Numbered from the stretch's first letter, positions 16,784 through 59,400 are shown. The stretch is 64,000 bases of DNA from an uncultured Acidobacteriota bacterium (GCA_963718645.1 OY970373.1:2855900-2919899); one strand, 5' to 3'. The notes: generated by a model not told the origin, from the sequence alone. A program made the numbers and translations.

Positions 16784-16890
16784 CAACACGGACGAGCACG
16801 GACGCACAGGGACCTTCACGGACCGTGAAGAGATCCCCCCTGGTCCGTGCAAGTCCTTTCCTCGTCCGTGGCAGTCTGTGAGGCCCTTAC
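16784..16890. repeat. CACGGAC-type REP-like palindromic element, copy a
   Basis: aacacggacgagcacggacg ... gtccgtgcaagtcc...cgtccgtgg lies between convergent genes. Confidence 0.6.
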
Positions 16891-16892
16891 CC

Positions 16893-18905
16893 CTACACCA
16901 GCACCGGCCGCTCGCTGGCCAGCCGGGTGAACATTCCGGGCTTGTAGGCGGTGATCCGGCCGGTGAAGGCCGAGGCCGCCACGGTCAGCGGCGAGGCGAG
17001 CCAGAGCTTGCCGGGTCCGGAGCGCCCCTTGTAGTTGCGGTTGATCGCCGAGACGGTGACCTCGTCCGCCGTCTCGGAGACCCCCGGCCCGCAGCCGATG
17101 CAGGCGCCGCAGCCGGGGTGGATGAGCTGCACGCCGGCCCGCTCGAAGGTGTCCGCCAGGCCGTTCTCGCGCACGAAGCTCTCCACCGCCTGCGATCCGC
17201 ACTGGATCATGAAACGCACCCCCGGCGCGATCCGGAAGCCGGCGTCCAGCGCCTCCTTGACCACCTGATGGTAGAAGATCAGGTCGTCGATCTTCCCCGC
17301 CGTGCAGCTCCCCCCATAGGCGATGTCGATCGGCACGTCGCCGATCTCGTCGATCCAGGCGCCGTTGGTCGGGTCGGACGGGATGCCCTCGTCCGGGTTG
17401 CCCGGGTGGGCGACCATCGGCCGCAGGGTCGAGAGGTCGATCGTGTAGACGCCGCCGGCGTACTCCGCGCCAGGGTCGGGGGCCACGGCGCGGGCCTTCA
17501 ACCGCTCGACATCGATCCCCGGCCGCCACTCAGCCAACCAGCGCCAGGTCTCGTCGTCGGCCACCACGACCGCCGTCTTGGCCGCACACTCGGTCGCCAT
17601 GTTGGTCAGCGTCGCCCGCTCGTCCATCGACAGCGTGGCGACGCCGGGGCCGGTGAACTCCATCACCCGGTCGAGGGTGAGCTGGGGGCGGGCGTGGTTG
17701 AGCAGGATGAAGAGCATCAGGTCCTTGGCCGTGACCCCAGCCGGCAGCTTGCCGGTCAGCTCGAAGCGGATCGACTCCGGGACCTCCACCTGGGTGAACC
17801 CCTGGTGGATCAGGTCGGCGTACTCGGTCGCCCCGACACCCCAGGTGAGTGCGTTGTTGACGCCGCCCATGCAGGTGTGGCTGTCGGTCGCCTGGATGAA
17901 ATCGCCGGGATCGATCAGGTGCTCGCGCGCCACCTCGTGGCAGATGCCGGGCGAGATCCGGTCCTTGGCCGAGAAGTCGCGCACGCCGGTGTGGGCCTGG
18001 AACTCGCGCTGCAACACGCGCAACGTCTCGATCTTGTCGAGGAAGGCGCGCATCTTCGGCACCTCGTCGGCGTAGATCAGATGGTCCTCGAAGACCGCGA
18101 ACTTGCCCGGGTTCTTGATCTCGTACTCGGCGCCGTACTCCTGCTCCAGGAAATAGTGGACCTGGGCGGTGGTGAACTCGTGGGAGTAGCCGCCGTCGAC
18201 CGACACCACCACGGCGTCGCCGGGCTTCACGTAGTGCGGACCATCGCCCACTCCCAGGAGATGGCGGGCGAGGATCTTCTCGGCCATGGTCATCGGCCGC
18301 GGGCCGGTGTCCGGCTTCGGCAGCTCGAGCTCGCCGGCCGCCAGCGCCTTCGAGAACGGGAACAGCCCGCCCTGGCGGATGACGATCTGCGTGATCGGGT
18401 CCCACCCCTGGCAGAACTCTTCAAGGGGAATCCCCTCGCCGGCCTGGAGCCGCTGGATCATCCCGTGGTCGCCCATCAGCACGCCCTGGCTGATGTTGTT
18501 GCGGGCGTGGATGGGAGCGAAGGAAGCGGCGATGGCGATCCGGATGCCCGACCACTTCTCCGCCTGCACGGCGGTCTCGCGCGAGCTCCCCACCCCCTTG
18601 CGGAAGCCGGAGACGATGACCTCGAAATTGCCGTCGATCAGCGCGTCGCGCTCGAACAGGCGCTTGCCGTCGACGATCAGGCCGGCGTAGGCGTCGCGGG
18701 CGATGTCCTCGGGGCGGTGGCTGAAGCAGACCCAGGCCGGGGTCATCGCGTCGGTATTGATGTCGTCGAGCAGGTCCTCGACCCGGAGATCGGCCATCCG
18801 GAGGTCGAGCTCCCCGCGCAACTGGCGGCGGATCAGGTCCGGATCCTTGGTGAGGAACAGCACCCGTTTGCCGGGGATCAACCGGAGGGTCTCAGGAGGC
18901 TTCAT
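16893..18905 (-). CDS. aconitase-family hydro-lyase with an N-terminal swivel (LeuD-like) domain fused to a LeuC-like catalytic domain
   Basis: The catalytic-domain motifs DSHTCMGGVNNALTWGVG, GSCTAGKIDD and SAINRNYKGRSGPG are present. The N-terminal GNFEVIVSGFRKGVGSSRE segment is swivel-like. Confidence 0.75.
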   Translation of the reverse strand: MKPPETLRLIPGKRVLFLTKDPDLIRRQLRGELDLRMADLRVEDLLDDINTDAMTPAWVCFSHRPEDIARDAYAGLIVDGKRLFERDALIDGNFEVIVSGFRKGVGSSRETAVQAEKWSGIRIAIAASFAPIHARNNISQGVLMGDHGMIQRLQAGEGIPLEEFCQGWDPITQIVIRQGGLFPFSKALAAGELELPKPDTGPRPMTMAEKILARHLLGVGDGPHYVKPGDAVVVSVDGGYSHEFTTAQVHYFLEQEYGAEYEIKNPGKFAVFEDHLIYADEVPKMRAFLDKIETLRVLQREFQAHTGVRDFSAKDRISPGICHEVAREHLIDPGDFIQATDSHTCMGGVNNALTWGVGATEYADLIHQGFTQVEVPESIRFELTGKLPAGVTAKDLMLFILLNHARPQLTLDRVMEFTGPGVATLSMDERATLTNMATECAAKTAVVVADDETWRWLAEWRPGIDVERLKARAVAPDPGAEYAGGVYTIDLSTLRPMVAHPGNPDEGIPSDPTNGAWIDEIGDVPIDIAYGGSCTAGKIDDLIFYHQVVKEALDAGFRIAPGVRFMIQCGSQAVESFVRENGLADTFERAGVQLIHPGCGACIGCGPGVSETADEVTVSAINRNYKGRSGPGKLWLASPLTVAASAFTGRITAYKPGMFTRLASERPVLV

Positions 18906-19165
18906 CGAGGGCTTCTCCTTTCGCGCTTTCGCAACGGACGGCGCCCGCCCATCCCGGTGACGGGGAGGTGGCGGAGCGCTGACATTCTATCCAAACGCCG
19001 ACGGTCCCGGGAGGAATTTCGGACTCCGGATCTCGCAGGCCGGATGGGTCTGTCGCTTGCTTCGACGCGGTGCCTGGTGGTATCCTCGACATCAGTTCGG
19101 AGGTTCTAATCGTGTCGAGACATGCAGCAGCGGTATCCCAGAAGGTGCTGTGCTACGATGACCGC

Positions 19166-57935: not shown

Positions 57936-58079
57936 CCTTCCGGCCGCCGCGCCGTGGTAGAGTTCCGACCCTGATTTCTCTGGAGTGATTCGGCGCCGGG
58001 CGGCCGACCGCGGTCCGCCCTCCGCTTCGGTTGATTTCGAGAAGAGAGCCGGCCCTGGCGAGCAGGAGGCTCGTCGCGC

Positions 58080-59267
58080 ATGAGCTCTGAGCAGATACCC
58101 GCGCCGGAGCCGCCCCTGTGGCGGCGCATCTGGAGCCCTCCCGAGGCGGAGGTCTCGTCGGTCGGCTATGGCGGCGAGATGCTGGTCGCCAGCGTGCGCC
58201 TGGCGATCGTCTTCGCCCTCCTCTACTTTCCCATCCACGAGCTGCGGCTGAAGCGCGGCAGCTTCGATCCGTTGGCGCTGCTGACCACGGCGACGGTCGG
58301 GCTGGTGCTGGCGCTCGCCATCTACTCCGCCACCAACCGGAGCTGGGGGCGGAGCTGGATCGGCTTCGTCAGCGGCGTCCTCGACGTCAGCCTGGTGAGC
58401 GCCATGCTCGGCGTCTTCCTGGTCCTCGACCGGCCGCTGGAGGCGACCAACAACCTCGCCATCTACCCCATCTATTTCCTGGCCATCGCCGCCACCAGCC
58501 TGCGCTACGACGCGCGGATCTGCATCGTCACCGGCGCGCTGGCGCTCGTCGAGTACGCCGCCCTGATCGCCTACGCCGACTGGCGCTGGCACCTGCACGC
58601 CCTCACCTTCGCCCCGCTCGCGCAGCTCGCCGGCGCCACCCTGGTGGCGGCGACGATCGTGGTCCGCGCCCGCGAGCTGCGGCTGCTCTCCACCCGCGAC
58701 CGCTTCACCGGCCTGCTCAACCGCGCCGTGTTCAACGAGCAGCTCGAGCGCGAGGTGGCCTTCGCCCGCCGCGAGGACGGCCGCTTCGCCGTCGCCATGC
58801 TCGACATCGACCACTTCAAGAAGTTCAACGACACCTACGGCCACGCCGGCGGCGACCAGGCCCTGCGGGTGGTGGCGAAGATCCTGCGCGACACCTGCCG
58901 CTCGACCGACGTGGTGGCCCGCTACGGCGGCGAGGAGTTCGCGCTGATCCTCCCCGGCGTGATGAGCGGCCGCGCCACCGATCTGCTGGAGCGCTTCCGG
59001 CGGGTGATCGCGATCAAGCCGATCCACCTGCCGAACCGCCCGCAGCCGGCGAGCGTGACGGTGAGCATCGGCGTCGCCATCTGGCCGGACGACGGCGACA
59101 ACCCCGCCGAGATCCTGCGCTGCGCCGACCAGCGCCTCTACCAGGCCAAGGAGCAGGGGCGCGACCGCGTCGTCGGCCCCACTCCGCACCACCTCCCGCG
59201 CCCACCCGGGGAGGGCCCGCGGGCGACCGGGGAGATGCGGCTGCCGGTGCTGCCGCCGGTGCCGTGA
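58080..59267 (+). CDS. membrane-associated GGDEF-domain diguanylate cyclase
   Basis: The N-terminal multi-TM sensor region precedes RFTGLLNR...MLDIDHFKKFNDTYGHAGGDQAL...RYGGEEFALIL (GGEEF). Confidence 0.85.
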   Translation: MSSEQIPAPEPPLWRRIWSPPEAEVSSVGYGGEMLVASVRLAIVFALLYFPIHELRLKRGSFDPLALLTTATVGLVLALAIYSATNRSWGRSWIGFVSGVLDVSLVSAMLGVFLVLDRPLEATNNLAIYPIYFLAIAATSLRYDARICIVTGALALVEYAALIAYADWRWHLHALTFAPLAQLAGATLVAATIVVRARELRLLSTRDRFTGLLNRAVFNEQLEREVAFARREDGRFAVAMLDIDHFKKFNDTYGHAGGDQALRVVAKILRDTCRSTDVVARYGGEEFALILPGVMSGRATDLLERFRRVIAIKPIHLPNRPQPASVTVSIGVAIWPDDGDNPAEILRCADQRLYQAKEQGRDRVVGPTPHHLPRPPGEGPRATGEMRLPVLPPVP

Positions 59268-59400
59268 AAAAGGAACACGGACGAACACGAACCTGCACGG
59301 ACGAACACGGACACAGAAAAAAATCCCCCAGGGTTGGCCGCTGGGGCCCTTCGTGTTCGTCCGTGTTAGTCCGTGTCCGTCCGTGTTCCTTTGTCCTTTT
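59268..59400. repeat. CACGGAC-type REP-like palindromic element, copy d (A-run / long hairpin / T-run, bidirectional-terminator-like)
   Basis: aaaaaggaacacggacgaacacgaacctgcacggacgaacacggacacag ... cccccagggttggccgctggggc ... gtgttcgtccgtgttagtccgtgtccgtccgtgttcctttgtcctttt lies between convergent genes. Confidence 0.6.

Follow-up and report, generated by a model that had tools for sequence, protein, structure and literature searches.

Widespread foldback repeats between genes that may close transcripts and spread like non-autonomous mobile DNA

Short, extragenic, repeated sequences that form hairpins at convergent and co-directional gene 3′ ends, often in head-to-head arrangement, are represented in Enterobacteria and Pseudomonas by the REP and BIME elements, for which roles in transcript termination, in mRNA stabilisation or as gyrase sites have been proposed. 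Here we analyse a family of intergenic elements that shares these traits, and for which the same roles are considered, in a 64,000-nucleotide stretch of DNA from an uncultured Acidobacteriota bacterium (GCA_963718645.1 OY970373.1:2855900-2919899), referred to as the window. Each element is composed of an array of the heptamer CACGGAC, a centre, and a mirrored array of GTCCGTG. A REP is a stem-loop of 20–40 bp that carries a GTAG or CGTC tag beside a stem of 8–9 bp (PMC3733652). The REP unit is itself a stem-loop with an unpaired tag, whereas the CACGGAC unit is a non-palindromic heptamer with a 10-bp period. The identical CACGGAC unit also spans many phyla, and no transposase of the RAYT type, to which many REP families are tied, was seen among the scanned genes of the window.

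The elements are similar to miniature inverted-repeat transposable elements (MITEs) such as Correia elements and REPINs in being non-coding and shorter than 300 bp, in having inverted arms with a fixed outside-to-inside orientation, and in their patchy occupancy. They differ from MITEs in that no target-site duplication, cognate transposase or shared centre was found at the loci compared, and in that the arms outlast the centres. Eukaryotic Foldback transposons have inverted arms made of short tandem subrepeats in variable number, and the CACGGAC arms are likewise tandem subrepeats whose number varies. Like bidirectional intrinsic terminators, the elements are located past stop codons, form a strong hairpin, and are rich in A or purine on the 5′ side and in T or pyrimidine on the 3′ side of both strands. 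Their stems, however, are three to five times longer and broken by mismatched 3-nt spacers, a U-tract is present in only one window copy (d), and conservation of the stem sequence across phyla, as seen here, is not called for by any terminator model. The cyanobacterial STRR sequences are tandem heptamer repeats in intergenic regions, shared within lineages, with a contiguous 7-bp period and no mirrored arm; the CACGGAC arrays are also heptamer-based tandem intergenic repeats, but they have a 10-bp period, a mirrored arm and a different sequence. The RNAs CsrB and RsmZ carry repeated C-A-N-G-G-A-N-G-like units in the loops of separate small hairpins of an sRNA gene, and the CACGGAC unit is nearly identical to the related hcnA site C-ACGGAU-G (PMC4005645). 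Different from CsrB/RsmZ, the CACGGAC units recur every 10 nt, mostly pair with a mirror array and are located in intergenic DNA at 3′ ends, and their degenerate forms often lose GGA. A literature search by sequence and by concept found no description of a CACGGAC array. Compared with REP-, MITE- and terminator-like repeats, the architecture is unusual and the distribution unexpectedly wide.

Anatomy and placement of the four window elements

The window contains four elements, labelled a to d (Table 1; window coordinates are used throughout), at the sites where a preliminary description made from the sequence alone had located them. In all four, a CACGGAC array is followed by the centre and then by the mirrored GTCCGTG array, as that description had it, but each arm has three to five units, degenerate ones counted, instead of two or three. 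The units mostly follow a 10-bp period. The inverted arms are 25–53 nt long and 76–87% complementary, and the whole elements measure 93–146 nt. The centres (ca. 14–45 nt) are unrelated in sequence between copies, and the arms alone are common to all four. With their terminal inverted repeats, small size and non-coding sequence, the elements have traits of the MITE type. The heptamer cannot pair with itself; the palindrome arises only from one whole array facing the other. There is no GTAG in the elements, and CGTC occurs only at the junction of spacer and unit (ttCGTCcgtg), not beside an 8–9-bp stem.

CACGGAC and GTCCGTG together occur 29 times in the window, as compared with 11.9 ± 3.4 times in dinucleotide-preserving shuffles. 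The four elements contain 23 of these heptamers; the six in the remainder of the window represent no enrichment outside the arrays. When one mismatch per unit is allowed, in-phase arrays of at least three units are found only at these four sites. Both strands of all four elements fold more stably than their shuffles, with minimum free energies (MFE) of −52.7 to −103.1 kcal/mol and z scores of −3.3 to −11.1, which bears out the stable hairpins expected earlier. Element c contains a compensated heptamer pair, caccgac and gtcggtg. At Rfam gathering thresholds, a scan of the window and 17 other loci (the loci compared carry L-numbers) matched only the tRNA-Gln of the window and, in L069, a group II intron, and a relaxed scan of element c returned only generic miRNA-precursor hairpins far below threshold.

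We then inspected the genes next to the elements. The elements lie 1–30 nt past a stop codon. Junctions a, c, and d are convergent and have Pfam-supported genes on both sides, namely FadL-like/aconitase family, M50 peptidase/D-Tyr-tRNA deacylase, and GGDEF/GH3, respectively, with stop codons 2–27 nt from the arrays. All four junctions had been described as convergent; this holds for a, c, and d, but junction b lies between the co-directional genes pth and rpsF. The convergent reading of b arose from a spurious antisense open reading frame (ORF) on the plus strand, which is 811 aa long, has no Pfam match, has a higher GC content at first codon positions (GC1, 0.89) than at third ones (GC3), and has an antisense-like translation. 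Beneath it lie four minus-strand genes (Table 1). As a promoter-like site of rpsF adjoins element b, the element is located at an operon boundary, where tRNA-Gln-prs-ctc-pth ends and rpsF-rpsR-rplI starts. This site is kept in all relatives compared.

The placement is similar elsewhere. Among the hairpin-type elements of related loci with both neighbours called (n = 28; the gene calls are crude and GC3-based), 10 are in convergent, 18 in co-directional, and 0 in divergent gaps. The upstream stop is mostly no more than 30 nt from the element, while the next start is farther off. In the window, a manual tally of convergent gaps of at least 100 nt outside an island at 1-15300 (described below) found a strong palindrome in seven of eight: three belong to the CACGGAC family, three to a second family, and the seventh is a long hairpin of the caccgccg type (30060-30388). 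No strong palindrome is in the remaining gap (37805-39132, 1.3 kb), which may hold an uncalled gene. Canonical terminators composed of a hairpin and a T-tract are scarce, as one was found at 44–60.5 kb where five were expected. The scan missed a terminator-like hairpin within the centre of d, probably because its maximum loop was set to 8 nt. The A-run and T-run reported to flank element d are present as an A-run on the left and a T-rich flank on the right. The earlier view of a palindromic intergenic family at gene 3′ ends, with strong hairpin potential and terminator-like placement, is supported.

The repeat unit in other genomes and its turnover

One genome per species was scanned for the 17-mer CACGGACGARCACGGAC, which gave at least 117 loci. 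Among the matches listed, to which the following figures on bacterial carriers refer, ca. 70% of the loci have at least three clustered heptamers and therefore are not chance 17-mer matches. By record title (labels of metagenome-assembled genomes, MAGs), the carriers are mostly Thermoanaerobaculia and other Acidobacteriota including the low-GC Aminicenantes. The genome of the window is itself Thermoanaerobaculia-like, and the closest named homologues of its Pth belong to this class. Further labels are Planctomycetota, Lentisphaerota, Verrucomicrobiota, Hydrogenedentota, Armatimonadota, Chloroflexota, Myxococcota, Sumerlaeota, Omnitrophota and a few Alphaproteobacteria, making about a dozen phyla. 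Several MAGs contribute many contigs each, and locus GC content ranges from 41 to 72%; the carriers are therefore not a single mis-binned lineage. In viral contigs of IMG/VR, 15 of 30 matches have at least three clustered units, as compared with 1/42, 0/6, and 0/5 for permuted control heptamers. In a Mu-like phage, an array separates the major head gene from gp36, and the contigs L142 and L146 keep GC-rich arrays at 33–34% GC. No cluster of two or more heptamers was found in 582 kb of other bacteria's pth loci (metagenome Pth matches, the best being 71% identical), and a BLAST search of element d against cultured plasmids and phages gave no match. The CACGGAC array is thus a specific and widespread entity, and not species-specific as first described. 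A further IMG/VR contig, L126, has a five-unit, 48-nt array (907-954; its length is a multiple of three) within an 861-aa ORF with a Toprim-like domain, where the repeat may have inserted within the gene and in frame.

Across all loci, heptamers on the same strand are spaced by 10 nt in 250 of ca. 310 cases. In elements found independently of the search pattern, G (64%), A (68%), and A or G (61%) predominate at the three positions of the spacer, giving a G-A-R bias and the consensus decamer CACGGAC-GAR. Degenerate in-phase units include CACAGAC (9), CACCGAC (8), CAGGGAC (5), CACGAAC (4), and CAAGGAC (2). The centre between the innermost perfect heptamers is 2–60 nt long with a median of 32. 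The CACGGAC arm comes first in 46 of 47 two-armed elements and second in one. Either arm order gives the same hairpin stability, so this asymmetry calls for a cause. Base composition is polar as well. In 48 elements, against a background of A = T = 16%, the left arm outside perfect heptamers has 36% A and 12% T, and the right arm 37% T and 9% A; the 15 nt upstream have 29% A and 39% G, and the 15 nt downstream 34% T and 37% C. Read from either strand, this is the polarity of a bidirectional terminator with A-tract, hairpin and U-tract.

Arrays with a single arm also occur (31 + 22 clusters). They are direct arrays of up to eight units, and some are upstream of genes (L035, L031). In the single-arm arrays, CACGGAC is in the sense of the upstream gene and near its stop in ca. 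15 cases and reversed in 7, a difference that is not significant. The genes adjoining long direct arrays were checked as cognate regulators, and were found to be unrelated metabolic enzymes only. In low-GC MAGs, arrays start abruptly (..AGC|CACGGAC..) and finish with GTCCGTG|GC... In four low-GC Aminicenantes contigs (L010, L049, L063, L087), the CACGGAC arrays are fused in the same orientation to arrays of 9–10-nt units, CACGAATTA and CGCGAAGAN. The partner arms in these contigs are sometimes AATCCGTG or AATCTGTG, which pair with CACGGAC only via G-U, and CACGRA may be the common core of the fused arrays.

Relatives of the window locus were found through Pth homologues of 92–75% identity. They share the synteny ssb, dtd, M50, HU ... 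spoVG-prs-ctc-pth, rpsF-rpsR-rplI-MTase (methyltransferase), PBP. Junction b is occupied by a CACGGAC element in the window, L287/288, L289, L119/120, and L122; L118, L121, and L290 have an insert of ca. 390 nt and a short hairpin instead, and in L123 the junction is empty, the pth stop directly meeting the rpsF promoter. Junction c is occupied in the window and L121, which have an unusual outer pair, CACGGACaCACGGAC, in common. In L122 this junction holds a different palindrome, and in L123 the two stop codons almost abut. Downstream of ssb, an element is present in L121 and L122 and absent from the window. At the level of species, junctions have thus acquired or lost an element, or have exchanged it for another hairpin.

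Between orthologous elements, identity is 94% (144/154) in heptamer columns, as compared with 61% in spacers and 71% in centres (Fisher p = 3e-9); a heptamer column is defined by a perfect heptamer in at least one sequence, which introduces a mild ascertainment bias. The number of units varies, L289 having three left units and the window four, and one arm may decay (tacggac, gaggac, ctcggac) while the other is intact. In L121, spacers deviating from the consensus are complementary between arms (tac/gta, gat/atc). Together with the compensated pair in element c, they suggest that the arms are kept complementary.

The ca. 390-nt insert at junction b contains an ORF of 80–93 aa that starts with MKKK and has no Pfam match (L118 4644-4886, L121 10640-10921, L290 6731-6979). 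It is antisense to pth in two of the three gene calls, and may be a gene for a small secreted or RiPP-like peptide.

Possible transcript-end hairpins, sequence-reading factors and mobility

Our preferred reading, to which we give about even credence, is that these elements form a widespread foldback family of intergenic repeats that make hairpins at transcript ends and spread like non-autonomous mobile DNA. A transcript arriving from either side would contain a T-poor, purine-rich 5′ arm, the centre, a complementary U-containing 3′ arm, and a tail enriched in pyrimidine and U, and the element would amount to a GC-rich, lengthened A-tract/hairpin/U-tract module. The hairpin would close transcripts, through termination or attenuation and also through a block to 3′-exonucleases, acting both ways at the convergent junctions a, c, and d and one way at the pth/rpsF boundary. 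This role is suggested by where the elements lie, by their hairpin strength and polarity, by how few canonical terminators there are, and by the way in which other hairpin families take their place at the same junctions. The family would propagate like non-autonomous mobile or recombining DNA, with copies gained, lost and swapped and with carriers in many phyla and viral contigs. The heptamer sequence itself would be read by some factor, which may be a mobilising enzyme or a binding protein. Such a factor is implied by three traits of the heptamer: it is identical across phyla, it evolves much more slowly than the spacers, and it recurs in 10-bp phase; likewise, heptamer identity against drifting spacers and the 46:1 arm order point to a protein, be it a transposase or a binder.

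If this reading is right, the family would be a portable, sequence-defined module for ending transcripts, common to many poorly studied phyla (Acidobacteriota, Planctomycetota, Verrucomicrobiota, Lentisphaerota, Hydrogenedentota, Armatimonadota) and placed at convergent and operon boundaries of genomes that largely lack canonical U-tract terminators. It would aid the annotation of operons and 3′ ends in MAGs, and serve as a marker of horizontal exchange between phyla and viruses.

A number of observations weigh against this reading. Hairpins without a U-tract are poor terminators for some RNA polymerases, and a real T-run is present only in copy d and its inner minus-strand hairpin; the tails of the elements are enriched in T on average and do not form tracts. 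A function of the hairpin alone leaves the cross-phylum heptamer and the drifting spacers unexplained, and a hairpin is impossible in the single-arm arrays. L123 has no hairpin at junctions b and c. The substitutions do not bear an RNA signature: on the sense strand, G-U pairs (36) are not in excess over A-C mismatches (30), the sense strand is the more stable one in only 11 of 23 elements, and RNAalifold of five orthologues of b gave a covariation term of +2.56, with pairs invariant or broken. The pairing could therefore equally be DNA-level or inherited. As to mobility, no target-site duplication was recognisable between filled and empty sites at b and c, where the flanks are too diverged to place the exact boundary; no array-flanked transposase or autonomous copy was found in ca. 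150 loci; and no centre sequence is common to the copies, as it would be in a typical MITE or REPIN family.

Just one gene, cas2 (5028-5330), was seen between two arrays; these are opposed and lie within L079 4975-5378 of the Aminicenantes MAG JAPKZK010000050.1. The surrounding region is a CRISPR-Cas locus with cas1 (3995-4963) and an array of 37-nt CRISPR repeats (6235-7886). We judged the array-cas2-array arrangement to be incidental and not an autonomous element. The CRISPR-Cas locus is normal, and the arrays probably represent two intergenic insertions.

In a further reading, which we think improbable, the arrays are sites of a conserved trans-acting factor, and the elements are transcript-end switches controlled by this factor rather than passive hairpins. 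Two kinds of factor would fit: an RNA-binding protein that recognises repeats, of the CsrA type or another, and acts on the 5′ arm as it is transcribed, or an oligomer that binds DNA. Its phased CACGGAC targets would mark hundreds of gene ends, spread over about a dozen phyla, most of them uncultured, and over their phages.

The elements may also act at the DNA level only. Phased (CACGGACGAA)n units on one face of the helix would then be bound by an oligomerising protein, and the RNA hairpin would be incidental. The binder might be a nucleoid-associated protein, a polar roadblock of RNA polymerase, or a recruiter of topoisomerase or gyrase like BIME-2/REP, controlling read-through or supercoiling. 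The dominant 10-bp period, the conservation of heptamers amid drifting spacers and centres, and the fixed head-to-head orientation are consistent with such sites, and the lack of G-U bias, sense-strand bias and covariation looks as if both strands counted equally. Direct single-arm arrays, some of them upstream of genes, and the retention of GC-rich arrays in low-GC viral contigs point in the same direction. We nevertheless regard this explanation as unlikely. No candidate protein was found, and the neighbours of long arrays are unrelated metabolic genes. The purine/pyrimidine polarity and the proximity to stop codons fit a transcript-level role naturally, and the compensated pair in c and the complementary spacers in L121 suggest that pairing of the arms is maintained.

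With the same low probability, the family is a selfish miniature foldback transposon, whose arms are terminal inverted repeats made of multiple transposase sites and which survives at harmless 3′ ends without any host function. A fixed orientation is expected of terminal inverted repeats, and the patchy occupancy of orthologous junctions, the spread over many phyla and viral contigs, the abrupt array ends in low-GC MAGs, and the difference of one unit between L289 and the window agree with this explanation. On the other hand, filled and empty sites show no recognisable target-site duplication, no autonomous copy with a transposase lies between arrays in the ca. 150 loci, and no transposase is close to the window elements. 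The centres are unrelated, yet the arms are conserved where nearby non-coding DNA has diverged; such conservation at old junctions argues for constraint or homogenisation after insertion.

Less probable still is that the arrays are read as RNA, with a CsrA-family or other protein binding the nascent 5′ arm (CACGGACGAA units) and regulating termination or antitermination, and with single-arm arrays serving as 3′-UTR sponges. CsrA specificity is conserved across phyla, and this could explain the cross-phylum heptamer. The CsrA/RsmE site is an A(N)GGAX hexaloop closed by C-G, as in the hcnA site (PMC4005645). Every perfect unit here reads C-ACGGAC-G, so multiple A(N)GGA motifs are present, and C-ACGGAC-G-A resembles a high-affinity CsrA/RsmE site, the heptamer together with the G-A-R spacer matching the motif of that study. 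CsrA/FliW is reported from some Acidobacteria and Planctomycetes (PMC4682653). CACGGAC is the 5′ arm of both transcripts in all but the one reversed element, and in single-arm arrays it is about twice as often in the sense of the upstream gene. That last bias is not significant, however, and the likeness to the CsrA site was found after the unit had been compared with many motifs. The predicted folds pair every unit with the mirror arm, and GGA is exposed only in the single-arm arrays of other loci; the GGA of hairpin copies is thus buried in a long duplex, the worst context for binding (PMC4005645). Moreover, degenerate units are mostly without GGA while the supposedly free X position is invariant, which is the opposite of a CsrA-type constraint.

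A classical species-specific REP/BIME family mobilised by a RAYT (IS200-like) transposase, as the preliminary description had it, is very improbable: the elements are extragenic, palindromic, repeated and located at gene 3′ ends, but the unit is not a stem-loop and no GTAG/CGTC tag stands beside an 8–13-bp stem (compare PMC3733652), the family is not species-specific, and no IS200/RAYT-type transposase was found among ca. 50 window ORFs scanned against Pfam or beside arrays in the loci examined. attC/integron cassettes, lambda-type arm sites, MraZ/OmpR-type operator arrays, rRNA complementarity and coding repeats do not fit, and neither do DUS/USS uptake sequences or Chi sites, as the 6 heptamers outside the arrays, versus ca. 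12 expected in total, represent no enrichment.

Feature coordinates and further observations

Table 1. Coordinates of the CACGGAC elements and of features around junction b in the window. MFE is in kcal/mol.
Feature	Coordinates	Strand	Description
Element a	16784-16890		Fills the 111-nt gap between FadL-like stop 16779-16781 (+) and aconitase-family stop 16893-16895 (-); MFE -55.1 (+), -54.2 (-); z -4.5 and -3.3
a, left arm	16787-16823		CACGGAC at 16787, 16797, 16817; degenerate cagggac at 16807
a, centre	16824-16842
a, right arm	16843-16880		GTCCGTG at 16843, 16864; degenerate units at 16853, 16874
Element b	45378-45470		Co-directional junction, between pth stop 45473-45475 (-) and rpsF promoter; MFE -60.8 (+), -52.7 (-)
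b, left arm	45381-45417		Units at 45381, 45401, 45411; degenerate cagggac at 45391
b, centre	45418-45431
b, right arm	45432-45468		Three perfect GTCCGTG-ttc and degenerate gtcggtc
Element c	54505-54650		Between M50 peptidase stop 54500-54502 (+) and dtd stop 54653-54655 (-); 53-nt arms, 87% complementary; MFE -92.9, -103.1; z -10.3, -11.1
c, left arm	54513-54557		Perfect units at 54513, 54531, 54551; degenerate cagcgac at 54521, caccgac at 54541
c, centre	54558-54580
c, right arm	54581-54625		Perfect units at 54581, 54611, 54619; degenerate gtcggtg at 54591, gtccatg at 54601
c, tail	54626-54650		Three ggttccgc
Element d	59268-59400		Between GGDEF stop 59265-59267 (+) and GH3/NagZ-like stop 59402-59404 (-); 44-nt arms, 86% complementary; MFE -77.9, -86.0; z -9.5, -10.3
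d, A-run	59268-59272
d, left arm	59276-59312		Units at 59276, 59296, 59306; degenerate cacgaac at 59286
d, centre	59313-59358
d, terminator-like hairpin in centre	59317-59349	-	CCCCAG, 9-nt loop, CTGGGG, T7 (plus-strand A7 at 59317-59323)
d, right arm	59359-59385		Three perfect units; T-rich tail up to 59400
pth	45473-46090	-	Stop adjoins element b
rpsF promoter-like site	45338-45365	-	TTGCCT-16 nt-TAAAAT; 13 nt from end of element b
Spurious antisense ORF	42798-45233	+	811 aa
rpsF	44823-45227	-	Beneath the spurious ORF
rpsR	44586-44819	-	Beneath the spurious ORF
rplI	44130-44576	-	Beneath the spurious ORF
Methyltransferase	42864-44093	-	Beneath the spurious ORF

The second palindrome family of the window is unrelated to the CACGGAC elements. 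It has the core gccctcatcaccccggccctcttctccc...gggagaagagggccggggtgatgagggc, fills the convergent gaps 27183-27293, 33220-33409, and 42717-42863, and has hairpins with an MFE between −49 and −130 kcal/mol. The family occupies the MTase/PBP junction of the window, L119/120, L122, and L287/288; it is cleanly missing there in L118, where the gap is only tgacccctta, and also absent in L123. This pattern of presence and absence is as expected of a MITE. The long GC-rich hairpin at 30060-30388 is composed of caccgccg/ggtggtcaccaccgcc units and has an MFE of −182 kcal/mol. Another GC-rich hairpin, composed of ccgccggagaaggcg-Na-cttccgcctc units, is located downstream of ssb at 55674-55886, and a related ccttccgcctc...gaggcg piece is found 3′ of the CACGGAC element in L121 and L122.

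The first part of the window (1-15300) has a lower GC content (48–51% in the first 4 kb and 60–67% up to ca. 15 kb, versus ca. 70% elsewhere) and a weaker GC3 bias. It hosts genes for a large serine recombinase (4311-5909, minus strand), a CHC2 primase-like protein (7012-8052), two HTH-TPR regulators (10839-12308, 12742-14337), a P-loop kinase/zeta-toxin-like protein, an SDR and a DUF4760 protein. The region looks like an integrated mobile island, and is without a CACGGAC element.

Spurious antisense ORFs of the high-GC type recur in the window. Aside from the one over rpsF-rpsR-rplI, they are found at 35879-37747 (minus strand) and 49423-51500 (plus strand); in all three, GC1 exceeds GC3 and there is no Pfam match. 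The ORF of prs (46765-47922) overruns tRNA-Gln (47835-47909), so the true prs start is farther downstream. The 5′ leader of rpsF (45228-45340) is near-invariant among relatives that are 75–92% identical in Pth. Its conserved pattern, gtcaccgggcggg...gccgccgattc.ttcacctctctgttccg...gggaccgacc.caggccatagggagga, is below every Rfam gathering threshold, and the leader is probably an autoregulatory leader of ribosomal-protein genes.

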